This document shows positions 14,809 to 61,803 of a stretch of 64,000 bases of DNA, piece after piece; position 1 is the stretch's first letter, and each line of letters begins with the position of its first letter. The notes under the pieces are model-generated. The model saw only the letters and a program-made list of their open reading frames with translations, made no database searches and had not been told where the DNA came from. Location: IMG/VR virus record IMGVR_UViG_3300026549_000054, positions 1-64,000 of that record. The stretch is one strand, 5' to 3'. The position numbers were made by a program, and so were the translations under genes. Origin of the DNA: a virus. Its lineage: Duplodnaviria > Caudoviricetes.

Positions 14809-15147
14809 TTAGATAAAATCTTCGTTCATCTCTTTTAGTTTTTCGTCTAGTTTCTTGTGTTTGAAACCAGGAATACAATCGTCATAAATGTGGTTAATGA
14901 AACGATTAAAACCAGTCAAGATAAAACCAGTATCTCTATGATACTTTCCTTCGTGCCACCAATTTATTCTCCATATAGGATTTGCGGAAAATTCCAACTC
15001 GCCAAAAATGGCAGTGTCATTCAGACCCACCATATACCAATTATGGTATTCGTCATTTCCCGAGTATCGTTCGCCACCTAGAATACATTTAAATCCTAGT
15101 TTCTTCAGTTTCTCCAGGATTTCCTGTTCTATTTCGGGATTGTTCAT
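14809..15147 (-). CDS. small protein, C-terminal 'DF' family
   Basis: Likely start at ATG 15147 (SD GGAGG); ends KLKEMNEDFI. Confidence 0.6.
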   Translation of the reverse strand: MNNPEIEQEILEKLKKLGFKCILGGERYSGNDEYHNWYMVGLNDTAIFGELEFSANPIWRINWWHEGKYHRDTGFILTGFNRFINHIYDDCIPGFKHKKLDEKLKEMNEDFI

Positions 15148-37961: not shown

Positions 37962-38354
37962 TCAAAAATCTTTACTCAACTTTTTCTCTTTGTCAGCTAG
38001 TTCTTCTTTCTTGTGTAACAGAATTGCTTTATCTATAATTGTCTTCTGCAAATCACACCAGTTTCTAAAATTTTCTAAACCTGAAAAACCTTTACAGTCA
38101 TTATTATATACAAATTCCGAAGATTCATTTGAAGTAAAACTTTCTTTTCCATTAGGAAATAAAGTATAAGAAATCGTATTAAACTTTATTCTATAACATT
38201 CATATAAAGTAACAAAAACTACCCTTGGGCTTGGTCTTCGTTTGCAAGGATTGTTTAATGAAAATGTTTTAAACTTTGGGTCTTTGTTTGTGTTATTAAA
38301 CCCAAATTCCCTTAAAATATCTTCTAGCTGTGGTTGTAATTCATTCCAATTCAT
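37962..38354 (-). CDS. small protein, C-terminal 'DF' family
   Basis: Ends KEKKLSKDF. Confidence 0.6.
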   Translation of the reverse strand: MNWNELQPQLEDILREFGFNNTNKDPKFKTFSLNNPCKRRPSPRVVFVTLYECYRIKFNTISYTLFPNGKESFTSNESSEFVYNNDCKGFSGLENFRNWCDLQKTIIDKAILLHKKEELADKEKKLSKDF

Positions 38355-38411: not shown

Positions 38412-38678
38412 CTAGAAGTCTTCTTTCATTTTATTAAGTTTGATTCTTTCTTTTAATTTGTTCGCATACAAATTGAAAATTCCTTCTGTCATATTTGCTA
38501 TAATGTTTCTGGGAATTACAATTCGGTCATTCAATGAGGCTAGTTCTTGATAACTATAACCAGCATTTATTTTGTCATCGTGTTCGTCATAATAGAGAAC
38601 AAACTTATCTTTTTCGCTAATTCTCCCATTCAAAATGCTAAAGACTTTTACTGCTTGCTCATAAGGTATTACATTCAT
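38412..38678 (-). CDS. small protein, C-terminal 'DF' family
   Basis: Ends KLNKMKEDF. Confidence 0.6.
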   Translation of the reverse strand: MNVIPYEQAVKVFSILNGRISEKDKFVLYYDEHDDKINAGYSYQELASLNDRIVIPRNIIANMTEGIFNLYANKLKERIKLNKMKEDF

Positions 38679-38983
38679 TAAAAATCTTCCTGAACATTGT
38701 GTAGTCTAATCATCATCTTAATTTCATTTACCAAGTGGAAATACTTAAATTCTGTAAAGTTCTTAAAATCTTTGTTTGAAATCGTGATAAAGATACAACC
38801 ATCTTCCAGGTTCTTCTTTACATTCCGCTTCAAATTCATACCACCAGTAATTTCGTTGGTAACCGGACGATACACAATAGTAAGTACATTCTTCTTGAAA
38901 TCGGCACTCTTTGTATTTTCTGTAAGAATTTTATTTACATTCTTAAAGGAGTTAATCTTGAGGTTGTTGAGAGAAATGAGCAT
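38678..38983 (-). CDS. small protein, C-terminal 'DF' family
   Basis: Ends RLHNVQEDF. Confidence 0.6.
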   Translation of the reverse strand: MLISLNNLKINSFKNVNKILTENTKSADFKKNVLTIVYRPVTNEITGGMNLKRNVKKNLEDGCIFITISNKDFKNFTEFKYFHLVNEIKMMIRLHNVQEDF

Positions 38984-39399
38984 TAGAAGTCCTCCGCCAT
39001 AGATTTGAATTTTGTTACCTGTTTTGTGAGTGTTTCAGCCCTGATGGCTGCTTTAGCATTGTTCGCTAAAATTTCTTTGATTTGGGAAATCGTCAAGCGT
39101 TCCTTAGTTAAATCGTAAACCTTGACACCATACTTATTTTCAAAATTTTTACAATTTTCAACTGTAACTTCTTCACTGAGAAGTGCGGAAAAATCATAGA
39201 GAGTAGCTTCGTATTTGCTGTACATAAAAATTATTTTGTTTGCCAAGAAGCTATTTTCCGACCACTTGTAAGACCAAACGCGGTTAATAATTTCATCAGT
39301 AGAATAATCTACATTCGTTTTTTCGTCAAAGAACGCGGCGTAAACTTTCATTTCGTTTAGAATCGCTGCGAAATTATATACACTGGGGAAGTTCTTCAT
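38983..39399 (-). CDS. small protein, C-terminal 'DF' family
   Basis: Ends KFKSMAEDF. Confidence 0.6.
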   Translation of the reverse strand: MKNFPSVYNFAAILNEMKVYAAFFDEKTNVDYSTDEIINRVWSYKWSENSFLANKIIFMYSKYEATLYDFSALLSEEVTVENCKNFENKYGVKVYDLTKERLTISQIKEILANNAKAAIRAETLTKQVTKFKSMAEDF

Positions 39400-39787: not shown

Positions 39788-39816
39788 AATATAGTAATTT
39801 TAAACTGCGTTGTCAA
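39788..39816 (-). promoter_or_regulatory. early sigma70-type promoter
   Basis: TTGACA (39816-39811), 17-bp spacer, TATATT (39793-39788). Confidence 0.8.
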
Positions 39817-39904: not shown

Positions 39905-40336
39905 TTAGTCAAAATCTTCGTTCAATTTGTAAGACCTTACTAACATATCCAGCTTTTTTAATGCCAAATCTCTGTTTTCAGCATTTTTTATTTCATTCCA
40001 AACAGGAACTATCTTTTTGAAATCGTCTAAAATTTTGTTTCTGTCAGGATGTAGAAAATCCGTCTGGTATTCAAATTCATTTTTTTTACAATCATTACAA
40101 CTGCTAACTTCTATCGGCATATCTACAGTTGGAAAATCAAAAATGTATTCTAGTTTGATAGAAAAACTATAATTTGCTATATCATATCGTTTTGTAGCAT
40201 TTATTATTAACCTGATGTTATTCTGTTTAGAATAATCAGAAATAAATTCATAAAATGCAGTTTTGTGCTTTTCTAGCATTTTAGAAGCTACATTATCAAA
40301 TTCGTTATAATCTTTATCTAGTTTGTCAATAATCAT
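39905..40336 (-). CDS. small protein, C-terminal 'DF' family
   Basis: Ends YKLNEDFD. Confidence 0.6.
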   Translation of the reverse strand: MIIDKLDKDYNEFDNVASKMLEKHKTAFYEFISDYSKQNNIRLIINATKRYDIANYSFSIKLEYIFDFPTVDMPIEVSSCNDCKKNEFEYQTDFLHPDRNKILDDFKKIVPVWNEIKNAENRDLALKKLDMLVRSYKLNEDFD

Positions 40337-48561: not shown

Positions 48562-48830
48562 TATTCAATCTCCACTGTTGTAGAAGCACCATCTTCAACA
48601 TAAACGGCTTTCCATACTGCTTTAAATGCCTGGTCTAAATCCATATCTCTACTGTATGCTTCAAACATTACAGTTTCCAATAGTTCAGGGTCTACTGTAT
48701 AATTCACTTCTTTCGCAAAATTTAGAATACGAGTTCTTAATTGGTCTAAGTATTCTTTCTCATACATTTCTTCATTAAGTACTTTATATCCAAATTTCTT
48801 TAATTTTTCAATAGCTTCTCTTAATAACAT
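48561..48830 (-). CDS. small protein with N-terminal EAxxxLxxxGY tag
   Basis: MLLREAIEKLKKFGYKVLNE; late promoter at 48851-48858. Confidence 0.6.
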   Translation of the reverse strand: MLLREAIEKLKKFGYKVLNEEMYEKEYLDQLRTRILNFAKEVNYTVDPELLETVMFEAYSRDMDLDQAFKAVWKAVYVEDGASTTVEIE

Positions 48831-48910: not shown

Positions 48911-49726
48911 TTACTTTACAAAGTGATTACGGATTCTTCTCTGCAAATTTACTACAGGGTCTTTTGTTCCGAAAACATCTTCAATTATTGTAAATGCGTA
49001 AGCCTTAATTTCTTTGTCATCTACTTCAAAGTCTGTATCTTTAATGATGCCAGATACGAAAGCAGGTGTCAAGGCTTTCTTCAAGAACAATGTTTTGGCT
49101 CTGAAATCGTCTTTGAAATCATCCCAATTATCTGTACCTTTCTGTTCAGTATTGGGCTTGCGGAAAGTTTCAGGAAAATCATCTTCTAATGATTCGTCCA
49201 AATCGTCATCATCGTCTTCGCACTTTCCGCCTTTCTTTCCACCACAGCAACCCTTTGGTTTTCTGCCGGCAACTTTTTCTTTGTGAGAGAACTTGTCACC
49301 CTTTGGCTTAGATTTGCCTTCGGTCATATATGCTTCGTCAACTGGAACATCGTCATATTCAACGGCAGTGTCATCAACAGTTTCGTCACCGAAATCTTCT
49401 GGGTTCTGTCCTTCACATTCGCAATTTTCGTAAGCAAGAATCTTAACAATGTCTTCAGCGGCAACACCCTTCTGTGAGAGTTCGTCAATGCGTTCATTGT
49501 TGGCTGTCATAATGTCAGCAACTTCTTGTGCGTCAAATCCTTCGTCACCGAGACCCTGTTCAACAGCACCATAGACATCACTGTCAAGCTGTTCTTCACC
49601 TTCAGCAGGCAAAGCTTCTTGGTTTGTATCAACAACGTCATCATAGACAGCGTCATCTTCAAAGTCTTCCGATACGATTCTGTAACCTTCGGAAAGCAAC
49701 AATTCTTTAGCGGTTTCGTATTTCAT
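48911..49726 (-). CDS. acidic protein with N-terminal tag, probable head internal protein
   Basis: MKYETAKELLLSEGYRIVSE; Asp/Glu-rich; late promoter at 49756-49763. Confidence 0.6.
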   Translation of the reverse strand: MKYETAKELLLSEGYRIVSEDFEDDAVYDDVVDTNQEALPAEGEEQLDSDVYGAVEQGLGDEGFDAQEVADIMTANNERIDELSQKGVAAEDIVKILAYENCECEGQNPEDFGDETVDDTAVEYDDVPVDEAYMTEGKSKPKGDKFSHKEKVAGRKPKGCCGGKKGGKCEDDDDDLDESLEDDFPETFRKPNTEQKGTDNWDDFKDDFRAKTLFLKKALTPAFVSGIIKDTDFEVDDKEIKAYAFTIIEDVFGTKDPVVNLQRRIRNHFVK

Positions 49727-49768: not shown

Positions 49769-50284
49769 CTAGTCTTCGTCAAAGTCTATATTATTATCTT
49801 CTTGTAATTTAAACCAAATTTTATCAAATTCAGTCATAGATAATGTTTTTGTTTTATACTTTTTCTTTTGTCCTTTCCATTCCAATCTAATACAATCGTC
49901 ATCAAGTACAACTTCAATTATTTCATCAGGACCATTAAACCAAAAATCAGGCATTATGATATTTAATGTGTTATCATTAACTATCTTTACTCTGCCTTTG
50001 TGTTTCTTTAAATAGATATTGTTATCAAAAAGCCAGTCTCTAATATCTTCAATAGAAACTACTTTTGTATTAAAAGTTTTAGCATTACTGATTTTATCTT
50101 TTAATTTGGGTCTTTCTTCGTCAAGCCAAATTAGTCTGTCCATTTCTTTTTTAGTCAAATCACCGCGGCCGTGACCAGCATGGTATCTGCGCATCAAATC
50201 TTCATATTCTTCGTCATTAGTTTCTGTATCTTCAAGTATATAACCGTGCTTTTTCAGCAATTCTTTGGCTTCATTTAAATCCAT
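49769..50284 (-). CDS. protein with N-terminal EAxxxLxxxGY tag
   Basis: MDLNEAKELLKKHGYILE; late promoter at 50303-50310. Confidence 0.6.
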   Translation of the reverse strand: MDLNEAKELLKKHGYILEDTETNDEEYEDLMRRYHAGHGRGDLTKKEMDRLIWLDEERPKLKDKISNAKTFNTKVVSIEDIRDWLFDNNIYLKKHKGRVKIVNDNTLNIIMPDFWFNGPDEIIEVVLDDDCIRLEWKGQKKKYKTKTLSMTEFDKIWFKLQEDNNIDFDED

Positions 50285-50344: not shown

Positions 50345-52177
50345 TTAATAGTAATAACCCGCTAAACTATCGTTTTCTTTGAACTTTTTCGCCATTTCTT
50401 CGTGTTTTGGCGAGTTATAAGGGCATTTATCGTAATCTTCCATATCGGCTATACCATCCATTAAATACAAATTAGAATTAGTAATGTCTTCTGGGCAACC
50501 TTTAGGGAAGTGTTTCTCCAAATACTCTCTGTTATCGTAATCGTCATTTCTCAACCAATCAAAGTTGTCATAAGGAATACGAATACAATAAGCACCGTGT
50601 TCATTTGGCACATTCTTTTCTTCGTCCTTCAAATGAGCATATTCAGGCTTATATTGAAGTTCTTGTGTAAATGAACTGTAGTCTACGTGGTGGTGGATTC
50701 TTTCAAACTTGTAAATCATTGTCGCATATTGTGGATAAGTTTCAACAAGCAACTGTGATTTTGGAATAGTTCCACCAATGTCCTTAGAATAGAACACTTC
50801 TGTATTACCGCCCTTAACGGCCTGCGTGTGCATCTTGTCTGCCAACATACAGTTGAATTGAACAGTACACCAACCGTGACTTAGAACATCCAAAGACTGA
50901 ATAGTATCTTCGTTATATCTTCCACGCTGCATAATATATGGGCAGTTCAAATTCCACAAACCATAAGAATAAATACGGGTGTTAATGATTACAGGTGGGA
51001 TATGTTCTCCGCCGATAGCGAAGCATTCATAATTCAAACCTGCCAAACCAATGTTCGTAAATCGGTCAACGTATCGTTCGCAACTTCTAAAGATTTCAGG
51101 ACTATGAGAAATGACTCTGCGACCTCTCCAATATCTTGTGAATTGGTCGGTGTTGTCATCCAAAATCCAACACCAGTTTTGCTTCAAAGTATTTTTAGCA
51201 TAATCAGCTGCCCAGTTTCTTGCTGCACCAGGGCCAGTTACTGGCTTACCATTTCTAGGGTCAATCTTACTTCCCAAATCAGGGTTAATGACATCGTACT
51301 TGTCCTTATAACTCATATCCATTTGTAGAATAGTACAGTATGGACTTTCATTCAATTTACATTTAACATAATTGTCATAGTCCCAGTCTTCTACAACAAT
51401 GTAATGGTTTACTTGCATCTTTGTAAGCTGGTGAGAAATGTGGTTTTTAAATTCACCACTTCTTCCACGGGACACAACAAAGATAGGATATTTTGGCTGT
51501 TCACCACCCAACCAGCGAATACGATGCTTTGTGTGTTCTTGCCATTTCTGTATAGGGTACCAACAGTCTTCAGGGCTGATACCAAAACTTTGTTCAAAAA
51601 TTTCCATTAACTGTTCAAGAGAATAGTCCTTCTTTTTGAAATACATTTGAATTTTTGTGAAGGAGTATTCCTTGAAATTGAAAATGAACTCTGGCATATC
51701 TCGCCAGGAATCCCAATAATTCCAAGACTTTGCGTTGCGTGCTTTTAGATGTTTGTATTTGTTCTTGAATTTGAAATCTGGAAATCTTGCTTCTTCAGTG
51801 AAATTTGTCATTCGGTAGTCTTCAATTCTTTCGTGACACAAACCAATGTCATCAGATACCAAATTTCTTTTACGAGCATCAGCACAAATTCTCTTATACA
51901 ATTTATCCAAATCTTCCTGGCAACGAACTTGCGTACTGAACTTCCAATAACCAGTATCTGTAACTTCTAAATCAGTGTAATTCTTAACCATTACACCATC
52001 TTTGTTGAAAAATCGGTATTCTTCGTTACCATATTTCAACATACTGATTTTGAAACCAAATTCTTCGCAGAAATCTTTTAAAGTATCTGGCTTGATTTTC
52101 ATTGTTGCCATATCGTCTTTTGTTAAATATGGCTTACATTTCAACAATTCCAATAAGTCTTTTTTATTTGATTGCAT
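50345..52177 (-). CDS. GREB1/TAGT-like (TET-associated) glycosyltransferase with N-terminal accessory domain
   Basis: YPIFVVSRGR, YIVVE, GPGAARN, WILDDN, NTRIYS, RGRYNEDT, KGGNT, HHHVDY. Confidence 0.8.
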   Translation of the reverse strand: MQSNKKDLLELLKCKPYLTKDDMATMKIKPDTLKDFCEEFGFKISMLKYGNEEYRFFNKDGVMVKNYTDLEVTDTGYWKFSTQVRCQEDLDKLYKRICADARKRNLVSDDIGLCHERIEDYRMTNFTEEARFPDFKFKNKYKHLKARNAKSWNYWDSWRDMPEFIFNFKEYSFTKIQMYFKKKDYSLEQLMEIFEQSFGISPEDCWYPIQKWQEHTKHRIRWLGGEQPKYPIFVVSRGRSGEFKNHISHQLTKMQVNHYIVVEDWDYDNYVKCKLNESPYCTILQMDMSYKDKYDVINPDLGSKIDPRNGKPVTGPGAARNWAADYAKNTLKQNWCWILDDNTDQFTRYWRGRRVISHSPEIFRSCERYVDRFTNIGLAGLNYECFAIGGEHIPPVIINTRIYSYGLWNLNCPYIMQRGRYNEDTIQSLDVLSHGWCTVQFNCMLADKMHTQAVKGGNTEVFYSKDIGGTIPKSQLLVETYPQYATMIYKFERIHHHVDYSSFTQELQYKPEYAHLKDEEKNVPNEHGAYCIRIPYDNFDWLRNDDYDNREYLEKHFPKGCPEDITNSNLYLMDGIADMEDYDKCPYNSPKHEEMAKKFKENDSLAGYYY

Positions 52178-52182
52178 ATAAA

Positions 52183-52509
52183 TTATTCCTCAAAATCTTT
52201 GGCAATTTTATCTAATCTTTTTTGATTATCTTTTGCTTTATATATAAGCGAACATCCTTCGCTGACTAATTCGCTAGTTAAACAATACAAATCATCAAAT
52301 TTTGTTCTAAATAATTTTCCACCTTCATAATCTTTTCTAATTATTATGTTATCATAATTGAGTATCTTTACAGAAATTTTAACTGCATCTGGACACTGGT
52401 AATAACCAAATTCATTCCAGTCATCTTTCTTAAAATCAAATTTATTCGCAATCCAACCGATGTTATAAAATGTCATCAGTAGTTCACTCAAATTGTATTT
52501 TCTATTCAT
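52183..52509 (-). CDS. small protein, C-terminal 'DF' family
   Basis: Ends RLDKIAKDFEE. Confidence 0.6.
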   Translation of the reverse strand: MNRKYNLSELLMTFYNIGWIANKFDFKKDDWNEFGYYQCPDAVKISVKILNYDNIIIRKDYEGGKLFRTKFDDLYCLTSELVSEGCSLIYKAKDNQKRLDKIAKDFEE

Positions 52510-52588
52510 ACACCAAAATATAGCAATAAAATAAAAAACCAGGAAAATTTTTATTTTTCCTGGTACTGTTAAAATTTATTTGTTCAGA

Positions 52589-53515
52589 TTAGTTTGTGCG
52601 ATAGCAGTAATATCCGCAATCAAGTGAAATTTCATCACCATCATAACGAGCCAAAAAATTAGCAGGACCATCTGCATCTATGATTGCTTCAGCAAGTTTA
52701 TTAAGGTTAATCAAGTTGTTTTTCTTAACAATTTCAGTAAATTGTTTCTTACCGAAGTTGTCAATATACCATTGAACGTCATCACCATCATAATAATCTT
52801 CAAGATATTTTTCAACGGCTTCGTCTTCATCTACATCACCAAATTCTTCTTGGTATCTTTCAGGTTCACTTTCGTGAATATCAGATACATAGTATTCAGC
52901 ATCTTCTTTCTTGGCATCTTCAAACCAACCAGTATCTACAAATTGTTCAATTCCACCAATGTTTTCAAAACGAATACCTTCAATGCCTACATCGTCAAAG
53001 AGTTCCTTACAATCTTCCTGAGCGGCTTCTTCTGCTTCGTCATAAGATTCGTAGCAATAGTATTCTTCATTACCAAATGTAACTTGAACAGCTAATTGAC
53101 CTGGACCTTCATTGTATTCTACTTCAGCATCGGCATAGTCATTACCTGTGTATTCAGCAAGTTCACGAACCATTGTCTTAATTTCGTCAGATTCACCTTC
53201 TAATGGGTCATCTTCAGTTTCTTCGTCATCTGGTTCTTCAGCTACATCTTCGTCTTCGGCTTCTTTCAAGATACGATAGCCAAAGGATTCGCAAACCTTC
53301 ATAGCTTCAGCAAGGTCGGAACCTTCAACTTCTTCTATGAACATATCTTTAACAATAGGGAACAAATCTCTATCATTAACTTCTTCATCCAAGTTAGCCT
53401 TTACATAAGCAAAACACTTCTGCAAGTTTGGTTCTCTGCCGTGTGTTTCACAAAATTCCTTATAGTCATTGACTAACAAATTAATCTCTGACATGTAACC
53501 TTCGTTAATTTTCAT
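52589..53515 (-). CDS. highly acidic late protein with internal EAxxxxxxxGY tag
   Basis: SDLAEAMKVCESFGYRILKEA; late promoter at 53547-53554. Confidence 0.6.
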   Translation of the reverse strand: MKINEGYMSEINLLVNDYKEFCETHGREPNLQKCFAYVKANLDEEVNDRDLFPIVKDMFIEEVEGSDLAEAMKVCESFGYRILKEAEDEDVAEEPDDEETEDDPLEGESDEIKTMVRELAEYTGNDYADAEVEYNEGPGQLAVQVTFGNEEYYCYESYDEAEEAAQEDCKELFDDVGIEGIRFENIGGIEQFVDTGWFEDAKKEDAEYYVSDIHESEPERYQEEFGDVDEDEAVEKYLEDYYDGDDVQWYIDNFGKKQFTEIVKKNNLINLNKLAEAIIDADGPANFLARYDGDEISLDCGYYCYRTN

Positions 53516-53586
53516 AATAACTCCTTCCTATAAAATTCGTTTATAGTATTTATAAATTTTTAGAAGTCTGTACTTATTTTCGCTAT

Positions 53587-53976
53587 TCATATTCTATTCA
53601 AGTGCCTTTTGTAGATTAAATCTATATCATTACTGATAGCCTTCGCAGTTTCAATGATTTTATCTACATCTGATATATCGTATTTCTTCAGTTTCTTTTT
53701 GTTTGTTTTGTGTTTTTTGATTAGTTTTTCCAAATTACCGCCATGATGAACAAAATAATTAGTAGCTTTTGAATGCAAATAAGGACTAATTCCGAACCCC
53801 TTTTGAGTACAATTCTTTTTATTTGCTATTTTTTCAGGAGCAAAACCCCAAGTTAAAATAAGATTTGGTAGTATTTTAGAAGGGGTATTATTTAAAAAAT
53901 AATTTAATGGCAATTCTTGTTTTATGTAGTCTTTAATTTCCTTTCGCATAGTTCTTGTAATACACTCCAAGTTCAC
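53587..53976 (-). CDS. hypothetical protein
   Basis: ORF; real start may be MRKEIK. Confidence 0.5.
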   Translation of the reverse strand: MNLECITRTMRKEIKDYIKQELPLNYFLNNTPSKILPNLILTWGFAPEKIANKKNCTQKGFGISPYLHSKATNYFVHHGGNLEKLIKKHKTNKKKLKKYDISDVDKIIETAKAISNDIDLIYKRHLNRI

Positions 53977-54547
53977 AAATTTTATCCAAAGTATTAGTTA
54001 AGTTATTCAATCGTTCTTCAATCTTATCATTCTTTTCTTTTAGGACTTTAACTGCCAATCTTTCTTCTTCCAAATTGTGCTTATGGATTTCCAAATCCTT
54101 ATTCTTCGCATCAATTTCGTCTTTCTGTTTGGCTATAATTCCATTCAACTTTGTGATTTCATCCAAACCGTGAGAAGTATTAACATTCTGTCTTAAAATG
54201 GTTTCGGACTGGTTCTTGATAAGTTCATTCTTTTCTGCCAATTCTTGTACTGTCTTTGCAGTTTGGATTTTGTATTCACAAATTGTTTCTGTATTTTCTT
54301 TGATTATATTTTCTTTCTTAATGAGTTCGCCTTGAAGAACGTCCATATCCTTCTTTAGAGCAGCCGTATCTTCAGCATACTTTGTTTTAAGATTTTCAAG
54401 TTCTTCTTTGGCTGTGCTATACCATTTTACAATTTCATCAAGTGCTTCATCCACATATTTTGCTTCATAAGCATCAATCGTAACTGTTTTACCCGCAGGC
54501 CAAACTTTTCTAGTAACTTCAATTTTGTTTAATTCTTCGTATTTCAT
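53933..54547 (-). CDS. coiled-coil protein with DivIVA-like N-terminus
   Basis: AYEAKYVDEALDEIVKWY followed by long heptad repeats. Confidence 0.5.
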   Translation of the reverse strand: MKYEELNKIEVTRKVWPAGKTVTIDAYEAKYVDEALDEIVKWYSTAKEELENLKTKYAEDTAALKKDMDVLQGELIKKENIIKENTETICEYKIQTAKTVQELAEKNELIKNQSETILRQNVNTSHGLDEITKLNGIIAKQKDEIDAKNKDLEIHKHNLEEERLAVKVLKEKNDKIEERLNNLTNTLDKICELGVYYKNYAKGN

Positions 54548-54559
54548 TAAATCACCTCA

Positions 54560-55111
54560 CTAAAAATCATTGTTTATATTTATAATTTTGGTTATCTGAT
54601 TTTGGATTTTAGTTTTTGTTTCTTTACGAAGTTGCTTAATTTCTTCTTCTTTCCTGTTAATTAAAGCCATCGTTTTCAATAAATTTTTAACTTCAGGTTT
54701 CTTATAAAATTCTACAACTTCTTTATATGTTGTTTCCATTTCAGTTAATTTGTTATCCAAATCTTCTAAACTATTTACTGGTTTCCAATCCCACTGAATA
54801 TCTTGGAAATCCTGAATTTCTTGAAGTTTAGGTGGCATACAGATGTCTTTGATAAAACCATCACTTATCCTTAGAACTGAAAAATCATTTGGAACATTTA
54901 CTACTTTCTTCGCAAAAGCCAAATTCTTAAACTTAGAAAACTTCACATATTCATCATCGCCATAATTAGCCTGAAAATTGTACATATCTCCCTTATACTT
55001 CTTATCCAAAATTTGTATGAATTTCGTATAATTAACCTGTACATTATGTTTGGCAAGTATTTCGTCTACTTGCTTACACATATCCCAATCAAATTTAATT
55101 ACATTTATCAT
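54560..55111 (-). CDS. protein, C-terminal 'DF' family
   Basis: Ends KIININNDF. Confidence 0.6.
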   Translation of the reverse strand: MINVIKFDWDMCKQVDEILAKHNVQVNYTKFIQILDKKYKGDMYNFQANYGDDEYVKFSKFKNLAFAKKVVNVPNDFSVLRISDGFIKDICMPPKLQEIQDFQDIQWDWKPVNSLEDLDNKLTEMETTYKEVVEFYKKPEVKNLLKTMALINRKEEEIKQLRKETKTKIQNQITKIININNDF

Positions 55112-55413
55112 TTGAAGTCCTCCTTTAATTTTTCAGTTCGTTTTTGTTCTTTAATTTGTTTGAACCATAAAGATTTTCTATCAAAAAATGCTCTTAATTT
55201 ATCTTCTTTATTAAACAGTGTAAAACCATCTATATTAGCTGTGTCATCTTTTTCAGGAATAAAATGGTAATCTTCCCCATAAGGATTTGAAATATAATCA
55301 AAATATCCAATTCGTTCACCCATAAAATAAACACCACTGGAAATTGAAATCTTCAGTGAATAATCACCAAATACTTTAAACAGTTCCTTCATCGTCATCA
55401 GTAAAATCCTCAT
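55108..55413 (-). CDS. small protein, C-terminal 'DF' family
   Basis: Ends EKLKEDFK. Confidence 0.6.
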   Translation of the reverse strand: MRILLMTMKELFKVFGDYSLKISISSGVYFMGERIGYFDYISNPYGEDYHFIPEKDDTANIDGFTLFNKEDKLRAFFDRKSLWFKQIKEQKRTEKLKEDFK

Positions 55414-55720
55414 TCAGTTCTCTTATTTTCAATTCCTGTTTGTATTTCTTATATACAAGGTCAAATTCCATAAATTTTAATCTGCAAAATTCGTAACAAT
55501 CACCATTAGTTCCGAAAATCAAAGTATAAACTAAACCATTCTTGTCTATACCAGTTAAATATGAATTTAAATCATAAGTTCCATTAGTACACCTGAAATC
55601 AAATACATCTGGAACATTATGGTTTATAATTGGCATTGACAAAGTAATAGAATTTGTATACTTGTTTTTTAACAAATTAAATTCTTCTGCCAATTTAATT
55701 ATATCATCATAGTTAATCAA
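55376..55720 (-). CDS. small protein, C-terminal 'DF' family
   Basis: KIRELNEDF near C-terminus. Confidence 0.6.
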   Translation of the reverse strand: MINYDDIIKLAEEFNLLKNKYTNSITLSMPIINHNVPDVFDFRCTNGTYDLNSYLTGIDKNGLVYTLIFGTNGDCYEFCRLKFMEFDLVYKKYKQELKIRELNEDFTDDDEGTV

Positions 55721-55976
55721 AGTCGCTCTCCATTTTCCCGAGTTTCTTCCAAAGTAGTCTTTGCTTTAATTCTAACATTTTATCGTTTAAATACTCTTTT
55801 AAACTTTCTTCTTTTGTTGTTGCTATTACACCCTTATCAGTATACAAAAATGTTTTCTGTCCACTTGAAGAAAAATCGCAAATACAATAATCACCTGACA
55901 TGGCTTGATAAAATATATCTTTCTTTACTTTCAAACCATATTCTTCACATATTCGTAAAAATGATGGTAGTGTCAT
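55713..55976 (-). CDS. small protein, C-terminal 'DF' family
   Basis: Ends KLGKMESDFD. Confidence 0.6.
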   Translation of the reverse strand: MTLPSFLRICEEYGLKVKKDIFYQAMSGDYCICDFSSSGQKTFLYTDKGVIATTKEESLKEYLNDKMLELKQRLLWKKLGKMESDFD

Positions 55977-56365
55977 TCAAAGTCCTTCTTCATACTCACA
56001 ATTCGTTTGTTCGCACCAAACTGTTTCTTGTAAAGAGAAAACTGACTATATGTTTCAATCAGATTCTTACAATGTTTCCTTAGTTCTTTAAGACTCCAAA
56101 TTTCTTCTGCTTCATCATCACCACCCCACATAATTTTCAAATTATTACTGTGGCTGTTATATTCTAATTTCATACAAGTTCGGCAAAAGGCATAATCGTC
56201 TGATGGGTCATATAAGAACACAGGACAATAGTAACCATCTTCGTCCTTGATTTTCGTGCCAGGAAAAGTTGCTACATAACAATCGTGTGATTTATCAAAT
56301 TTATAACTCAGCTTAAGTTCTGTGGCTAATTTTTTAAGACTGTCTTTGTTAATTTCATCGTTCAT
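55973..56365 (-). CDS. small protein, C-terminal 'DF' family
   Basis: Ends RIVSMKKDFE. Confidence 0.6.
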   Translation of the reverse strand: MNDEINKDSLKKLATELKLSYKFDKSHDCYVATFPGTKIKDEDGYYCPVFLYDPSDDYAFCRTCMKLEYNSHSNNLKIMWGGDDEAEEIWSLKELRKHCKNLIETYSQFSLYKKQFGANKRIVSMKKDFE

Positions 56366-56631
56366 TCAAAGTCTCTCTCCATTTTTAAAATCTTTCTTTC
56401 TAATTCTTGTTGTTTCAAATATATCAAAATTTCATTTAACCATTCTCTACAGGCACTTTCCGTACTTGTAGCATAATAATATCCGTCCTCATCCAACACA
56501 TAAATTAAACCAGTACTCAATAAGTACATTACAACTCTACCGCGATAACAAGCAATAGGGTCACCATTAATCGGGTCCATTCTCAATTCAAATCCATATT
56601 CCTCAACAAGTTTATTAAATACTTTTTTCAT
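56362..56631 (-). CDS. small protein, C-terminal 'DF' family
   Basis: Ends KILKMERDFE. Confidence 0.6.
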   Translation of the reverse strand: MKKVFNKLVEEYGFELRMDPINGDPIACYRGRVVMYLLSTGLIYVLDEDGYYYATSTESACREWLNEILIYLKQQELERKILKMERDFE

Positions 56632-56900
56632 TTGAAATCACTCTCCAATGCCTGTTCCTTAAAATGTACTTTCCACTTCTTAATTATTGGAATATATGCT
56701 TTAACACATTCTTCAGCAAATTTTATATCTTCTGTTTGTTCATACATTCTGGTTTTAGTGTTATACACAATCAAACCGTTAAATCCAGCTTCAATAACAT
56801 AATAATTACAGTATTTTCCTAATGTTTCTTGTCTTCTGTGTTCTATTACTAAGCCAAATTTAGCACTTAATTCGTGTACTGTCTGTTCCCATTTAGTCAA
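56628..56900 (-). CDS. small protein, C-terminal 'DF' family
   Basis: Ends EQALESDFK. Confidence 0.6.
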   Translation of the reverse strand: MTKWEQTVHELSAKFGLVIEHRRQETLGKYCNYYVIEAGFNGLIVYNTKTRMYEQTEDIKFAEECVKAYIPIIKKWKVHFKEQALESDFK

Positions 56901-57141
56901 AATCTTGCCCCAGTTGATATAGTCTTTTTTCGTTCTTTTCTGCTTTAATTTTCCTTAGACATTCACCAATCCGTAATCTTGCTTCTTCTTTAGTTCCAAC
57001 AAACTTTTTCATTAAACGATTAGTTCGGATATAAATTGTGTTATACATTAGGGACATCACGTATGTATCGTCATAAGTGGCATATTTTATTACACCATCT
57101 TCAACTGTCAATCCAAATTCACTAACCAATTCTTCAAACAA
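56893..57141 (-). CDS. small protein, C-terminal 'DF' family
   Basis: Ends RLYQLGQDFD. Confidence 0.6.
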   Translation of the reverse strand: MFEELVSEFGLTVEDGVIKYATYDDTYVMSLMYNTIYIRTNRLMKKFVGTKEEARLRIGECLRKIKAEKNEKRLYQLGQDFD

Positions 57142-57412
57142 AATCTGCCTCCATTTTTCTCAATCTTTCTTTCCCAAGTTCTTTCTTAAATTCCAACTCC
57201 GCCCTAGCAATATAAGCTAAACACTTTTCTAATTTATCCACTGCATCATCCAAATTATCTGCGTATTGAAATCCAAAATCCGAACCTAACCAAATACTTA
57301 AACTATTTGTTCCAGGAAAATATAACATAACTGCATAGCCTAAATAACGAGCCACATTATTCTCTACTTCAAACTTGTGTTCATTACTTAGTTTTTCAAA
57401 AATTTCTTTCAT
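57134..57412 (-). CDS. small protein, C-terminal 'DF' family
   Basis: Ends RLRKMEADFV. Confidence 0.6.
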   Translation of the reverse strand: MKEIFEKLSNEHKFEVENNVARYLGYAVMLYFPGTNSLSIWLGSDFGFQYADNLDDAVDKLEKCLAYIARAELEFKKELGKERLRKMEADFV

Positions 57413-57678
57413 TAGAAATCCTTCGCAATCTTCTTCAGTTTAATTTCTAATTCTTCTTTTTTAGTTTCTATAATAGTGTTTTTCAAAATTACTTCTATAT
57501 CAGATTTTAAATCCATATAATTACTAAAATTATGACCCATCCATACTGAAACTTTACCATCGGAATTATCATACATCAATACAACTAAATCCTTATAAAT
57601 GCAGTAAATGTAATTTTCCTGTCTCTCGGCTTTCAATCCATAAGATATAACAAGTTCATTAAGTTCATTATTAGTCAT
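57412..57678 (-). CDS. small protein, C-terminal 'DF' family
   Basis: Likely start MTNNELNE at 57678 (GGAG upstream); ends KLKKIAKDF. Confidence 0.6.
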   Translation of the reverse strand: MTNNELNELVISYGLKAERQENYIYCIYKDLVVLMYDNSDGKVSVWMGHNFSNYMDLKSDIEVILKNTIIETKKEELEIKLKKIAKDF

Positions 57679-57690
57679 AACTGACATTTC

Positions 57691-58210
57691 TCCATAGAAA
57701 ATTAAAAATTTTATAAGCGCAGATTTTTTTCTAACACCCATTTTCCTATAATATAGAAACTTTCCTATAACTTAGCAATATACAGAAAACACATTTTTTC
57801 CATAGAATACTTCATTTTTATAAGTGCTGATTTTTTTATTTTGCCCATATAGAGCGAAAAAGAGAACTGTTGCCTTAGCAACCCTAATTGGGTATTTTTC
57901 AGTACTTCTAGACCGAATTTTTGTATCAGATTTTTTTCAGATGCCACCCAGATTAAGAAACTGACGACTGATTTTTGATAGAGCTTTGGTTCGCCACCAT
58001 TCGCCCATACACCCCCTATATGCCCTTAATACAAATTTTCAGACCCATCTGACATCCATCCTGCGAAAAATATGCCCAAAAACGGGCATTTTTGGGTCAT
58101 TTTTGGGGTCTAGGAAATGACATATTTAGGGTCCCATTTTGGGTTGTATTTTATGACATACGCACTTTCGGCAGTTCAACTGGGTCAGCTCGGGACTGTC
58201 AGTAGGACCT
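57691..58210. repeat. non-coding region with imperfect ~105-108 bp direct repeats and a central palindrome (candidate ori/pac)
   Basis: Repeats at about 57691-57741, 57799-57848 and 57908-57950; ATGCCC-N6-GGGCAT at 58072-58089; CCC motifs left and GGG motifs right of the centre. Confidence 0.5.
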
Positions 58211-58594
58211 TTAGAAGTCGGACTGGAGGCGGTCTTGTCGGCGTTGAATCTCAAATTCTTTCAGTTCCTTGACCAGACGATTGAACTTCAAACACATTAA
58301 CTTGAAAAGTTTAGGGCTAAATTGAGAGACTGAGAACAAAAAGATATGTTGATTATCTCTATCAATGTTAGCGGGCATATATAGGGAATCTTTAATTATA
58401 TTATATTCTAGGATAAAAAAACCTTGAACATATTTAGAAGGTATGATGGCATTGATAATATATTGGGTTTGAAGGTTAATAGTAAGGTTATATTCCTTAC
58501 ATAGTGAATAGAATAGTTCTTTATTTGAAATCTTCATTTGCTTTTTCAATTCGTTTCCTCTCAATAATACCTTTAAGGAATAAAACGGCTTCAT
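58211..58594 (-). CDS. small protein, C-terminal 'DF' family
   Basis: Ends RQDRLQSDF; real start probably MKISNKE (58537). Confidence 0.6.
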   Translation of the reverse strand: MKPFYSLKVLLRGNELKKQMKISNKELFYSLCKEYNLTINLQTQYIINAIIPSKYVQGFFILEYNIIKDSLYMPANIDRDNQHIFLFSVSQFSPKLFKLMCLKFNRLVKELKEFEIQRRQDRLQSDF

Positions 58595-58838
58595 TTATAA
58601 TAGGGATGGCCTTATCAACAGACTTAGTATCTGTATGGAAGAATTCGGGAGAACCCCAACGAAGTATATGAATTTTATTAGTAACTTGGAATACAGGTTT
58701 ACCTTTATAGAAACCTGTATAGGTATGTTCATAATTATATAATGGACGAACTGTGTCTTTAACTTCTGTAACATAGGGACGCAGTTTATCAACTACTTCT
58801 TCTGCATTGAAGGTATAATTTAATTTAGAAGTCCGCAT
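58521..58838 (-). CDS. small protein, C-terminal 'DF' family
   Basis: Ends RIEKANEDFK. Confidence 0.6.
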   Translation of the reverse strand: MRTSKLNYTFNAEEVVDKLRPYVTEVKDTVRPLYNYEHTYTGFYKGKPVFQVTNKIHILRWGSPEFFHTDTKSVDKAIPIINEAVLFLKGIIERKRIEKANEDFK

Positions 58839-59139
58839 TTATTTGTGTTATCCTCAATAGGTTATCAAATTCTTTTATATTTCTCAAAGTGGTAGATAAG
58901 GCTTTTAGGGCGGGCTTTTCGGATTTATAAGTCTTTGTAGTCCAATCGGCCCATACCTTAAGTTTACCTTCACTATCATATTTTTTATGGTTATTGATGA
59001 TATGAATGGTTATATCTTTATCTGCCTTATTATAATAAAACAGATAGTAATTAGGGTCCTTATATCTACCTTCAATAGAATAATTTGTTTCATTAACAAT
59101 AGGTACTAAAGCTTTAAATTTATCTACATTAGCAATCAT
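58825..59139 (-). CDS. small protein, C-terminal 'DF' family
   Basis: Ends RITQINADF. Confidence 0.6.
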   Translation of the reverse strand: MIANVDKFKALVPIVNETNYSIEGRYKDPNYYLFYYNKADKDITIHIINNHKKYDSEGKLKVWADWTTKTYKSEKPALKALSTTLRNIKEFDNLLRITQINADF

Positions 59140-59449
59140 CTTGAATTCTCTTAAGTTTTTCGTGATAACCAGGAAATTTAAGTTCTAGGAAAGTATCTTT
59201 GATTTTAGGTAATAAACGGCGGACATCAAAGAAGTTCTTACAGACTTCAAAATCCCATTCAAGTTCATTAAAGTCTTTTATATAATTAACACCCATAATA
59301 TGTTCACCGAAATAAGTAAACATTGTATAATTATAGTTACTGATTGAATGATTCAAGTGCCCGATTATCCAGCCACCTTGGGTTTTAAATTCCATATAAG
59401 GACTAAGTAAATCTTTTACTTTCTTCCATTCAAGTTCTTTAAAAGTCAT
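59129..59449 (-). CDS. small protein, variant of C-terminal 'DF' family
   Basis: Ends KLKRIQDDC. Confidence 0.55.
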   Translation of the reverse strand: MTFKELEWKKVKDLLSPYMEFKTQGGWIIGHLNHSISNYNYTMFTYFGEHIMGVNYIKDFNELEWDFEVCKNFFDVRRLLPKIKDTFLELKFPGYHEKLKRIQDDC

Positions 59450-59798
59450 CTTTAATCTTCTTCAATCGTTTAGATTCTAAGTGTCTTTTATAGTTTCGTT
59501 CAAATCGGGATAGTTTAGCGAGAAGATAATCTAACTTTCTGTAAGCTTCTTCTATGGTTGTATACTTACCCCAACCAATACAGGCTATATCGGAATCACC
59601 CGGAGTGTATTCAAAGTCATTTACAATTAAGAAGTTATTATGGTCATCAATCTTAACTGTGTAACCATAGAACTCTAGGCCTGACGGGAAATTATAACAA
59701 TTCCAACCATCAATCTTACTCAATGAATACTTTAGAACACAAGCATTCAACAGCTCTTGTGCAGTAAGTGTGTCCTTAGCCATAGTTAGTATCTCCAT
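59439..59798 (-). CDS. small protein, C-terminal 'DF' family
   Basis: Ends RLKKIKDDF. Confidence 0.6.
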   Translation of the reverse strand: MEILTMAKDTLTAQELLNACVLKYSLSKIDGWNCYNFPSGLEFYGYTVKIDDHNNFLIVNDFEYTPGDSDIACIGWGKYTTIEEAYRKLDYLLAKLSRFERNYKRHLESKRLKKIKDDF

Positions 59799-59829
59799 AT
59801 CCCCAGGTTTACTGGGGCTTGTACGTCAA

Positions 59830-60318
59830 TTACTGTAGATTACTGACAATCTCGTCAAACATTCCGTCAATGGATTTGGCTTTAGAGAACAGTACAGAAT
59901 GTCCACCTGCCTCACGGTAGTTCGTTACATTCTTTTCCTTATCGTCAATTAGGATAGAATCGGGCGTAGCTTCTTTATGCTTAAAATTACCATTGTTGAT
60001 AATCTTAATAAGCTCTGCCGGAATGAATGGAGCATACTTCTTTAACCAAGCTTTCTTTCCACTCTTACCTTCCCAAAGGTGAACTGCAGAGAAGATACCA
60101 ACCTCAATGTCGGGATTCTCTTTAACATATTCTTCAACCTTCTTCAAGAGCATAAGGCCCTCTGGGATTGGCTTCATATCACTCCAAAATGACGGACCAA
60201 TCTCCTTCATCTTATTCCAATTACACTTATGAACATCGGGTTTCCAACATTCAAGTTCGTCACAACGGCCCTCAAAATCACAAAGCACACCGTCCATATC
60301 AAAGTAAATCGTTTTCAT
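59830..60318 (-). CDS. HAD-family 5'(3')-deoxyribonucleotidase (second paralog)
   Basis: IYFDMDGVLCDF, GKKAWL, ILIDDKEKN. Confidence 0.85.
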   Translation of the reverse strand: MKTIYFDMDGVLCDFEGRCDELECWKPDVHKCNWNKMKEIGPSFWSDMKPIPEGLMLLKKVEEYVKENPDIEVGIFSAVHLWEGKSGKKAWLKKYAPFIPAELIKIINNGNFKHKEATPDSILIDDKEKNVTNYREAGGHSVLFSKAKSIDGMFDEIVSNLQ

Positions 60319-60341
60319 TTAAACCTCTTTTTTATATAACA

Positions 60342-60370
60342 AATATAGATTATTTTGCGGTATTTGTCAA
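60342..60370 (-). promoter_or_regulatory. early sigma70-type promoter
   Basis: TTGACA (60370-60365), 17-bp spacer, TATATT (60347-60342). Confidence 0.8.
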
Positions 60371-60455
60371 TTAAAGTTATGTAAACTTTTATAAACAAAA
60401 AATGCTCCCGTTTGATAGGGAGCGGTAGGAATACACATGAACAGTTAAAAAAAGT

Positions 60456-60935
60456 CTAACTATGCCATTCTTCATTTAGATTATAACCAGGTTTTGTTTG
60501 TAATCTTTTAGCTTCTGTGATACCTTGTGGACATTGAACATTAAGCTGATGCATAAATCTCTTAAACATTCCATTGTCAAAAGCATAAGGAATCTGGTCC
60601 TTAATTACATATTCAACAGAGGTAGAATCGTAAAATCTGTCAATCAACACCCTAAGTGCTCGTTTTAATGCTAATGCTCTGCCATAAGCATACACATAAT
60701 TATCCTTATCTGCACATACAGCAACGGCTTTGGCGAGTAATAGTTTAGATACAGTTTCCGGGTGTTTAGGTGAAGGACACCCACGAACTGTTGAATTTGG
60801 GTATTTGTATTCAAGTTCATTCGTAGCAAGGCCTGTCATTTCCCATATTTCACAGGTACAAGTCTTATCTTTATGGGTGAAGAATACTTGGAATTTACGG
60901 TCTTTTCCGTCGGTACATTTAGTTGTAAAAATCAT
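60456..60935 (-). CDS. hypothetical phage protein
   Basis: AVCADKDNY...GRALALKRA motif resembling small phage proteins. Confidence 0.55.
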   Translation of the reverse strand: MIFTTKCTDGKDRKFQVFFTHKDKTCTCEIWEMTGLATNELEYKYPNSTVRGCPSPKHPETVSKLLLAKAVAVCADKDNYVYAYGRALALKRALRVLIDRFYDSTSVEYVIKDQIPYAFDNGMFKRFMHQLNVQCPQGITEAKRLQTKPGYNLNEEWHS

Positions 60936-61803
60936 CTATTTCTCCACTTGGAATTGAGCCATTCTCTACAGCAGCTTTTATATGTTCATATCCAATACCA
61001 TTACATTTTGGTATATTACTTTTTCTATTAATTTTTGTATTTTGTGATTGAATTGTAGATTTTTTTACTTTTTTAATTTTTAATGTATTATTTAAATTAC
61101 TTCTAAAAATTAAGTATTCATATCTGCTAGCCAAAATTAGCATTTTTTTAATTGCAGATCTATCTTTATATTTACCTTTATATCTTCTTGCATATTTAAA
61201 AGCTTCATCATAGTATTCGTGATAATAAGTATCATTAGATAAATTTATATTTAACTGTTGTTCAAGCGAAGAAACATCTTTTCTAAGTTTTTCCATACTG
61301 GTAAAACTTGTATTTGGCTTTTTATATAATTTATGATAAGATATACAAGTTTTATTTTGTTTTGTTAACTTATTTTGTTTAGAAGTCTTATTTTGACTGT
61401 TTGCAAGGATTTCATCACACACAATCTTTACAAATGTTTTATAGTCTGTATTATTTTCTCTTATAACTTTCAAACACTTTTTATCTGTATCATCAAGAGC
61501 ATTAAATGATTTATTAACTTGACCAAAACTTATTTCCCAGCAATTCTTTGTGACCTGTACTAAATTCAAGGTATGTTTTGATTTATTATATTTTTGTATT
61601 GATTTGTCACGAATTATTTTAGGTATTCCGGTTTCTAAGTGTATAGTTGATTTTGTTATTTTACTTTTATTTCGTTCAACAATTTCCGCATGAAGTCCAG
61701 TATACCCTATATATTTCTTTAATATATTTTGTTCTGTCTTACTATAATCGCTAATGTCAATACCGGATTGCTCCATATTCTTGCTTTTAGTGATTTGTTT
61801 CAT
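60919..61803 (-). CDS. hypothetical basic protein
   Basis: 294-aa Lys-rich ORF with SD AGGA. Confidence 0.55.
   Translation of the reverse strand: MKQITKSKNMEQSGIDISDYSKTEQNILKKYIGYTGLHAEIVERNKSKITKSTIHLETGIPKIIRDKSIQKYNKSKHTLNLVQVTKNCWEISFGQVNKSFNALDDTDKKCLKVIRENNTDYKTFVKIVCDEILANSQNKTSKQNKLTKQNKTCISYHKLYKKPNTSFTSMEKLRKDVSSLEQQLNINLSNDTYYHEYYDEAFKYARRYKGKYKDRSAIKKMLILASRYEYLIFRSNLNNTLKIKKVKKSTIQSQNTKINRKSNIPKCNGIGYEHIKAAVENGSIPSGEIDDFYN

Follow-up and report, generated by a model that had tools for sequence, protein, structure and literature searches.

In T-even phages, the capsid targeting sequence (CTS) is an N-terminal peptide that is cut by the prohead protease and acts in head assembly, and in poxviruses the ankyrin/PRANC proteins are multigene families in which a constant adaptor module is attached to variable parts that bind targets. 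The T-even internal proteins, as presented in passages of PMC3012670, are a diverse set of defence proteins in which only the CTS is conserved. The clamp-binding epitope of T4 is described in passages of PMC2988020 as hydrophobic and acidic, and as joined by a divergent flexible linker. In this study, we examined a window of 64,000 bases, which comprises bases 1-64000 of a 104,766-base virus contig (IMG/VR record IMGVR_UViG_3300026549_000054), and in which many small proteins share a C-terminal tail closing with Asp-Phe (the DF tail). A sequence-only reading of the window had pointed out 15 such genes in one array and seven dispersed ones (starting at 14809, 37962, 38412, 38678, 38983, 39905 and 52183), and all of them were recovered as open minus-strand frames with the endings that it had quoted. 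We conclude that the DF-tail proteins are an undescribed family that is real, strongly non-random and selected on the protein. The reading that we favour, with about even confidence, is that of variable heads on one constant docking helix with one shared partner.

This docking-handle reading is nearest in logic to the CTS and to the clamp-binding tails, and the family belongs to neither. Like the T-even internal proteins, the DF-tail proteins are small, diverse and fast-turning-over proteins of a T4-type phage that keep one short peptide, which would direct all of them to one place. In contrast to the CTS, the conserved peptide here is C-terminal and predicted to be helical, nothing suggests that it is cleaved, and the N-terminal helix is part of a confidently predicted fold. 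Furthermore, the family genes lie behind early-type and not late promoters, as the T4-type late promoter octamer TATAAATA precedes no family gene, and dozens of copies are found per 100 kb, compared with few for the CTS. The T4 clamp epitope resembles the tail in that short interchangeable C-terminal docking peptides occur on different T4-type phage proteins and address one hub (passages of PMC2988020), as the tails here would do if they dock. However, the tail is not acidic, since its last 17 residues are net positive in 29 of the 39 members on the contig (mean charge +2.0), and it is not carried on a flexible linker, being in the structure model the end of a helix of residues 58-88 with a conserved K at position -15 and K/R at position -8 (counted back from F as position 0). 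Conserved residues in the family thus reach 15 positions upstream of F, and the gp55-like protein of the contig has no terminal family tail (it ends ...SMDGLNKFVE and has an internal GLDFYDNL). We take the family spacing, hydrophobic-x-x-D-F, to resemble PIP-like motifs. As in the poxvirus ankyrin/PRANC proteins, many paralogues stand in arrays and are gained and lost rapidly, and a variable part is combined with a C-terminal module that is constant and would serve one host machine; the two differ in hosts, folds and size of the module, the analogy is one of logic only, and nothing here links the family to proteolysis. What we believe to be added here are the body-only profile links together with an N-terminal signature, a 9-to-0 codon count, a tail-less nonsense copy, a promoter census and the heptad geometry of the tail.

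First, the frequency of the ending was compared with chance. Among 146 crude genes of at least 60 amino acids, 34 ended in DF followed by zero to two residues (DF.{0,2}), whereas 2000 residue shuffles gave 1.44 on average and never more than 6, and the internal DF rate predicts 1.9 genes. Any other C-terminal dipeptide was found in at most 13 genes. A fuller regular expression of the tail gave 32 C-terminal matches and 5 internal ones, one of which is a variant member with nine residues after DF. Chance is excluded as the source of the DF endings, and the enrichment over shuffled C-termini on which the sequence-only reading depended is confirmed.

Subsequently, the tails of 71 sequences were tabulated, namely 39 rows aligned from the contig and 32 library representatives. 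D at -1 and F at 0 were present in all 71; I/M/L at -4 and K/R at -8 were each present in 69, K at -15 in 67, and L/I at -7 in 60. A hydrophobic residue was found at -23 in 58 and at -16 in 49 of the sequences, and zero to three residues followed F in 71/71. Exactly one heptad separates K at -15 from K/R at -8, and K/R at -8 from D at -1. The bodies, by which we mean the proteins without their tails, are net negative in 26 of the 39 members, with a median isoelectric point of 6.3.

Constraint on the tail codons was evaluated by Nei-Gojobori counts in 28 reciprocal-best pairs between the contig (G000) and a 109-kb related contig (G001), one pair being a spurious antisense open reading frame (ORF) without differences. 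Across these orthologue pairs, the D and F codons showed 9.0 synonymous and 0 non-synonymous differences, and the ratio of non-synonymous to synonymous substitution rates (dN/dS) was 0.27 in the nine codons preceding DF and 0.31 in the bodies. Because of these values, DF is regarded as being under strict protein-level constraint, and the remaining tail as being kept as a pattern, not letter by letter. Both codons also occur in both synonymous forms among the 39 members (D: GAT 23, GAC 16; F: TTT 22, TTC 16, with TGC in 1), the background in the long genes of the contig being GAT 1130 and GAC 540, and TTT 669 and TTC 376. The ATG of an ORF of at least 55 amino acids lies within -25 to +15 bases of the stop in 24 of the 39 genes, and a TTG start follows three more; the 12 genes without a coupled downstream start all keep DF. 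These results uphold the protein-level selection that the sequence-only reading had argued for, with the dN/dS comparison now made on the motif codons, as well as its doubt about an origin in overlapping Shine-Dalgarno sequences and starts; that alternative fails because the 12 genes without a nearby downstream start keep DF.

The whole contig encodes 39 family members, about a quarter of its genes. Twenty-two minus-strand genes of the window carry the tail, of which 20 end in DF plus zero to two residues, one in DDC, and one in DF plus nine residues. Fifteen of them are consecutive minus-strand genes that form an array at 54560-59798 (13 ending in DF plus zero or one residue, one in DDC, one in DF plus nine), and a second large array is located at 87287-93600 of the contig. 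The endings of the DDC variant (59129-59449) and of the DF-plus-nine variant (55376-55720) are identical in the orthologues of a related contig. L002 denotes a locus of a related contig. The members of the window are as follows, beginning with the array.

59439..59798, minus strand: family member of 119 amino acids, tail ...KRLKKIKDDF; best match to the family profile.
59129..59449, minus strand: variant member of 106 amino acids, tail ...EKLKRIQDDC, with Cys in place of Phe; tail identical in the G001 orthologue.
58825..59139, minus strand: family member of 104 amino acids, tail ...LRITQINADF.
58521..58838, minus strand: family member of 105 amino acids, tail ...KRIEKANEDFK.
58211..58537, minus strand: family member with tail ...RRQDRLQSDF, 108 amino acids from the start of the L002 orthologue (the ORF extends to 58594).
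57412..57687, minus strand: family member with tail ...IKLKKIAKDF, 91 amino acids from the start of the L002 orthologue (the ORF extends to 57741).
57134..57412, minus strand: family member of 92 amino acids, tail ...ERLRKMEADFV.
56893..57141, minus strand: family member of 82 amino acids, tail ...KRLYQLGQDFD; without an orthologue in the sampled parts of G001.
56628..56900, minus strand: family member of 90 amino acids, tail ...FKEQALESDFK.
56362..56631, minus strand: family member of 89 amino acids, tail ...RKILKMERDFE; the member with a confident structure model.
55973..56365, minus strand: family member of 130 amino acids, tail ...KRIVSMKKDFE.
55713..55976, minus strand: family member of 87 amino acids, tail ...KKLGKMESDFD.
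55376..55720, minus strand: variant member of 114 amino acids, tail ...LKIRELNEDF and then TDDDEGTV; the L002 orthologue ends alike.
55108..55413, minus strand: family member of 101 amino acids, tail ...KRTEKLKEDFK.
54560..55111, minus strand: family member of 183 amino acids, the largest of the window, tail ...TKIININNDF.
52183..52509, minus strand: dispersed family member of 108 amino acids, tail ...KRLDKIAKDFEE.
39905..40336, minus strand: dispersed family member of 143 amino acids, tail ...VRSYKLNEDFD.
38983..39399, minus strand: dispersed family member of 138 amino acids, tail ...TKFKSMAEDF.
38678..38983, minus strand: dispersed family member of 101 amino acids, tail ...IRLHNVQEDF.
38412..38678, minus strand: dispersed family member of 88 amino acids, tail ...IKLNKMKEDF.
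37962..38354, minus strand: dispersed family member of 130 amino acids, tail ...DKEKKLSKDF.
14809..15147, minus strand: dispersed family member with tail ...EKLKEMNEDFI, 112 amino acids from the orthologue start (the ORF extends to 15174).

The bodies were then compared with one another. BLAST with the tails removed gave 6 pairs among the 39 members, and none of the four BLAST clusters of bodies grew in local profile iteration. In a body-only comparison of 12 subgroups by hhalign (189 distinct bodies in total), 7 of the 66 subgroup pairs were matched at E < 0.01 and 3 at a probability of at least 50 %, compared with 0 of 66 in the reversed-profile control; the other 59 pairs showed no similarity at E < 0.01. 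The matched pairs join six subgroups (groups 0, 1, 6, 8, 9 and 10) of the 55108-57741 array, and a six-paralogue alignment of 40 rows is collinear from end to end. An N-terminal signature composed of a helix, a [YFH]-G-like turn and a strand was detected in 14 of the 39 members and in 10 of 89 control proteins (Fisher p 0.0016), and about eight further members show it by eye. Body-only profile scores were also marginally higher than those of the controls (Mann-Whitney p 0.0096). Because of the body-only profile links and the shared N-terminal signature, we suggest that homology extends over the full length in a part of the family and that the DF-tail proteins are at least partly one diverged family, the other bodies having no detectable similarity. 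The members range from 63-70 amino acids, which leaves no room for a sheet, up to 183 amino acids here and 259 in G001, and the bodies span 45 to about 240 residues. Our reading is that the bodies represent one architecture diverged past recognition in most lineages, plus members unable to share that architecture. The dissimilarity of the bodies that the sequence-only reading had noted therefore stands for most of them, and does not stand for the six profile-linked array groups (7/66 versus 0/66) or for the 14 members with the signature. The contrary case that it had named, full-length homologs of one ordinary domain family, applies to the part of the family joined by these links and this signature, and an ordinary known family was not found.

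A structure model was obtained with AlphaFold2 for the member at 56362-56631. The predicted local distance difference test score (pLDDT) was 94.7, and the model consists of a helix at residues 2-12, five strands, and a helix at residues 58-88. The tail is predicted to be the end of this continuous helix, with a pLDDT of at least 90. The best matches by VIA-align were 2a1v_A of DUF419 (Z 6.0, root-mean-square deviation 3.4, 80 residues aligned), frataxins (Z 5.4) and the TriTu immunity protein 7zhm_D (Z 5.2), all of which lie under the stated noise level of the tool (about 8), with sequence identities of 4-19 %. The frataxin/CyaY-like, DUF419 (2a1v) and TriTu-immunity-like sandwiches have the same order of elements as the model, namely helix, antiparallel sheet and helix. 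They differ in that the Z values are in the background, the identity is low, no match was given by Pfam, PDB sequences or Foldseek, and the alignments end ahead of the tail. Indeed, the structural matches to these compact helix-sheet-helix folds mostly end at model residues 73-80, near the K at -15 (K73). With the model as query, Foldseek had no match at E <= 0.001 in PDB or BFVD; the family profile reached at best E 0.041 among PDB sequences, and only unnamed viral clusters came from the ESM Atlas. A HicA-like or dsRBD-like origin, considered from the N-terminal helix-Gly-strand pattern and weak Foldseek rows, was dropped because it had no Pfam support. By helical periodicity in the model, the tail stripe (-11, -7, -4, 0) lies about 180 degrees from the presumed sheet-packing stripe (-23, -20, -19, -16). 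Since the tail stripe is opposite to the sheet-packing side, and since the matches to compact folds stop at about the point where the tail starts, the last 15 or so residues probably project from the body.

The contig carries the T4-type genes for both topoisomerase II subunits, NrdD, a gp18-like sheath and a gp15-like sheath stabiliser, together with genes for head-closure and baseplate-hub proteins and a gp55-like late sigma. With a CheckV completeness of 31 %, it probably belongs to a genome of well above 300 kb. The G+C content of the contig is about 0.27-0.40, nearly all genes lie on the minus strand, and no tRNA was found within the window. The public sequencing runs that contain this stretch carry the label bovine gut metagenome.

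The promoter context was examined by searching for sequence patterns, which are not measurements of expression. In the window, the minus (coding) strand has 19 copies of the late promoter octamer TATAAATA, compared with 2 copies on the plus strand. Fourteen of the sites lie within 120 bases upstream of a gene and precede the sheath, NrdD, topoisomerase and similar genes, and none of these 14 precedes a family gene. One site falls within the 3' end of family gene 54560-55111; the gene that it serves is the following one. The pattern TTGACA, 16-18 bases, TA[TC][AT][AT]T was found at 18 sites of the whole contig, all on the minus (coding) strand and none on the plus strand, and several of these sigma-70-type sites head operons with family genes (e.g. 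60370, 39816, 87953 and 94376). Examples of both types are the following.

60342..60370, minus strand: sigma-70-type promoter-like site (TTGACA, 17 bases, TATATT; 11/12) heading the operon of a deoxyribonucleotidase gene and the array genes from 59798 to 58211.
39788..39816, minus strand: sigma-70-type promoter-like site heading the operon from 39755 to 38412, which has three family genes.
27096, 23825, 29284, 37960 and 54584, minus strand: examples of TATAAATA.

Because sigma-70-type promoters precede the operons and TATAAATA is found ahead of no family gene, the family genes look early, in line with the early timing assumed in the sequence-only reading. The 18 sigma-70-type sites are near-identical (TTGACAA, about 16 bases, CTATATT). 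Nine TGTAAA-N6/7-TTTACA palindromes were also observed, most of them about 20 bases upstream of a sigma-70-type site (e.g. 39836/39816 and 67475/67455), and may serve the early promoters as an operator or UP-like element. Contigs of four metatranscriptome runs from four studies cover parts of 52000-61000 including pieces of the array; such contigs cannot prove transcription of the array, since carry-over DNA can be present in RNA libraries.

Subsequently, relatives of the family were searched for. In Pfam-A, no family was matched by more than one of the 39 members at E up to 5; in PHROGs v4, 0 of the 39 matched at E <= 0.001; and NCBIfam gave only two single chance-level matches. The array DNA had no match among GenBank phages, and tblastn of one member against the same phages gave chance matches only (E = 5). 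Relatives were found in metagenome contigs only, with 93 proteins obtained by a word-indexed search and 33 representatives by an exhaustive profile search. Nearly all are unnamed, the few names seen being 'hypothetical protein', and none has a precomputed Pfam domain; some sit on contigs of up to 409 kb. All 32 retrieved representatives end in DF plus zero to three residues. The family profile matched 35 places in the contig (105 kb), 28 in the 109-kb G001, and 2-7 places in each of 5/5 further related fragments, some of which have a topoisomerase only about 83 % identical. Full-text searches and a term search in PMC7824862, with supplementary files outside their scope, gave no description of a DF-tail family; the expansion of about 35 zinc-ribbon copies in phage G that passages of this jumbo-phage comparison report (PMC7824862) is different. 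Together with the database searches, these results agree with the sequence-only reading, to which no described phage system of this form was known.

The content of the arrays was compared between the two large contigs. Among the ORFs ending in DF or DC, 14 of 42 in G000 (2 of them clearly non-family) had no reciprocal-best match in the sampled parts of G001, and 7 of 35 in G001 had none in G000. The two arrays differ by whole genes: members found only in a relative are L002 10267-10626 and 10879-11205 (plus strand), and whole-gene differences were noted here at 56893-57141 and 55973-56365. These whole-gene differences show turnover of array content between phages in which the shared members have 67-99 % identity.

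On the docking-handle reading, the family would be a very large, lineage-specific set of small early proteins in T4-like giant phages known only from metagenomes. Each protein would have a fast-diverging body, in which, according to the model, a helix from either terminus covers a small sheet. The constant part would be the last 16-24 residues of the C-terminal helix (K -15, K/R -8, L/I -7, I/M/L -4, D -1, F 0), whose end may project past the folded body and present one conserved face, a hydrophobic stripe flanked by the heptad-spaced line of K, K/R and D. This face would bind one shared partner and bring many heads to the same place or machine early in infection, where the heads may each differ in the host or rival target that they recognise, for host take-over or counter-defence. 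We regard this as the most economical reading because of the conservation of DF, the varied body sizes, the gene turnover and the early context. A wider version is more tentative, and we hold it at clearly less than even confidence: giant T4-like phages would give a quarter to a third of their genes to interchangeable heads that a universal DF-ending helix plugs into a single hub, a hub-and-adaptor kind of take-over or counter-defence undescribed for any phage, in which new specificities would arise by duplicating and diversifying the head with the handle fixed.

If the tail is a common handle, the identity of its partner would for the first time assign a function to dozens of 'hypothetical' early genes in each genome and would reveal the machine that this phage lineage uses for host take-over. 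In phages, the family would then exemplify a naturally modular design of effectors, with a constant docking helix and a variable head, and the handle, some 16 residues with D-F at the end, could serve as bait or tag. Even on a modest reading, an undescribed family to which about one in four genes of a 105-kb contig belong merits a family definition.

Several points weigh against the docking-handle reading. Part of the family is homologous over its whole length, as seen from the collinear alignment, the profile links and the N-terminal signature, and the tail could be the best-kept part of one diverged fold and not a module. In close orthologues, the nine codons preceding DF are no more constrained than the body. 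A usable model was obtained for one member only; the member at 38983-39399, with 16 near-identical rows, gave a pLDDT of 41.1 and was not used. The projection of the tail is read from secondary structure, aligned ranges and periodicity. The analyses run found no partner of the tail. In addition, no fused form of the tail on a known domain was found among proteins of 322-2000 amino acids, which is weak evidence.

Among the alternatives, the one that survives best, and that we nevertheless consider rather unlikely, treats the proteins as ordinary paralogues that evolve very fast, share one fold and have a single activity in the basic helix (e.g. DNA, RNA or membrane binding), the copies being dosage or specificity variants without any adaptor logic. 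The linkage of six array subgroups by body-only profiles, the N-terminal signature, the slight excess of the profile scores over controls, the broadly similar member sizes and the positive tails are all consistent with it. However, a helix binding nucleic acid or membrane needs neither an invariant D-F nor a narrow stripe of three to four residues, and the bodies are mostly net negative. Furthermore, members of 63-70 and of 183-259 amino acids cannot have one body in common, and 59 of the 66 subgroup pairs lack body similarity.

We see only a small chance that the tail is the version in this lineage of the T4-family sliding-clamp-binding epitope, with dozens of early proteins carried by the gp45 clamp or competing for it. 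The T4 clamp-binding motifs contain Asp-Phe, and the phage is T4-like in its topoisomerase II, NrdD, gp18-like sheath and gp55-like late sigma. According to passages of PMC2988020, T4 gp43, gp33 and gp55 carry interchangeable short C-terminal clamp-binding motifs; the same passages describe the epitope as hydrophobic and acidic on a flexible linker, whereas the tail here is mostly basic and is predicted to be the end of a long helix. The gp55-like protein also does not end with the tail: its only D-F, within GLDFYDNL, stands 25 residues from the end and has Leu at -2, a position that is polar in the family. This late sigma is encoded at 101550-102092 of the contig (plus strand; L004:17550-18092; phrog_234, E 1.9e-5), and GLDFYDNL may be the clamp-binding motif of the lineage, internal rather than terminal. 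No clamp or polymerase gene was found with PF02916, PF09116 and PF00136 on G000 and G001, where PF02916 also missed the control genomes so that its answer is empty; gp43 was not found on either large fragment.

An assembly helix, by which the paralogues bind each other in homo- or mixed oligomers or a larger scaffold instead of an outside partner, appears equally improbable to us. The exact heptad of K -15, K/R -8 and D -1 beside a hydrophobic stripe is coiled-coil-like, and many members are co-transcribed in tightly coupled arrays, which would suit such an assembly. The stripe is short for this, however, at three to four residues, and the K/R at -8 would face itself in a symmetric pairing. 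A homodimer prediction for 56362-56631 (two copies) scored 0.00 in two runs without controls and was counted neither way.

Little probability is also left for a degron at the C-terminus through which a protease of host or phage clears the early proteins together, or for a packaging signal like the T4 CTS. The preferred C-terminal position, with zero to three residues after F in all tabulated sequences, and the precedent of one short targeting peptide on diverse T-even internal proteins (passages of PMC3012670) speak in its favour. On the other hand, one stable variant has nine more residues after DF and another ends in Cys, and a late promoter precedes none of the family genes. The T4 signal is, moreover, N-terminal and cleaved, and the conserved span from K -15 to F 0 exceeds that of known degrons. 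Finally, an origin of the motif as a nucleotide-level by-product of ribosome-binding sites and overlapping next-gene starts, which the 27 genes with a nearby ATG or TTG start would have suited, is refuted by the DF endings without a downstream start, the mixed codons, the 9 versus 0 differences and the conservation extending to -15, and retains practically no probability.

The remaining features that touch the array and its neighbourhood are listed below.

57742..58210, minus strand: array gap of 469 bases without a family gene.
58072-58097: two-way terminator-like hairpin in the array gap.
57750-57778: promoter-like site in the array gap.
57765-57947: ORF of 60 amino acids in the array gap with a family-like N-terminus (…NLIQKFGLEV…).
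53563..53976, minus strand: 23rd copy, found by the family profile, with the tail cut by TGA 8 codons ahead of ...IAKISTDF.
52538..52564, minus strand: terminator-like hairpin directly upstream of the gene 52183-52509.

The gap has a G+C content above that of its flanks, and the gene 58211..58537 is the final one ahead of its terminator-like hairpin. An Rfam scan of 52000-61000 at E <= 0.1, which covers the gap, gave nothing. The ORF at 57765-57947 had the top score among the controls with the body profile (7.3 bits) and may be a decayed family member. In the copy at 53563-53976, a single C-to-T change (CGA at L002 of the relative, where the tail is intact, and TGA here) drops only the last 8 residues including DF; this copy is either a naturally tail-less allele or a dying gene.

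Contigs of three of the metatranscriptome runs, from different studies (X6, X14 and X22), all start at 52582-52583, a short way beyond the stop of the gene 52589-53515 and some 18 bases ahead of the hairpin at 52538-52564. Another set of genes has a similar N-terminus of its own (M-D-L-x-E-A-K-E-L-L-x-x-x-G-Y-like), at 43058-43918, 48561-48830, 48911-49726 and 49769-50284 of the window and at 95046-95678 and 95668-96060 of the contig. Several of these proteins, as well as the product of the gene 52589-53515, are extremely acidic, and the genes with the M-D-L-x-E-A-K-E-L-L-type start may be another lineage-specific family.

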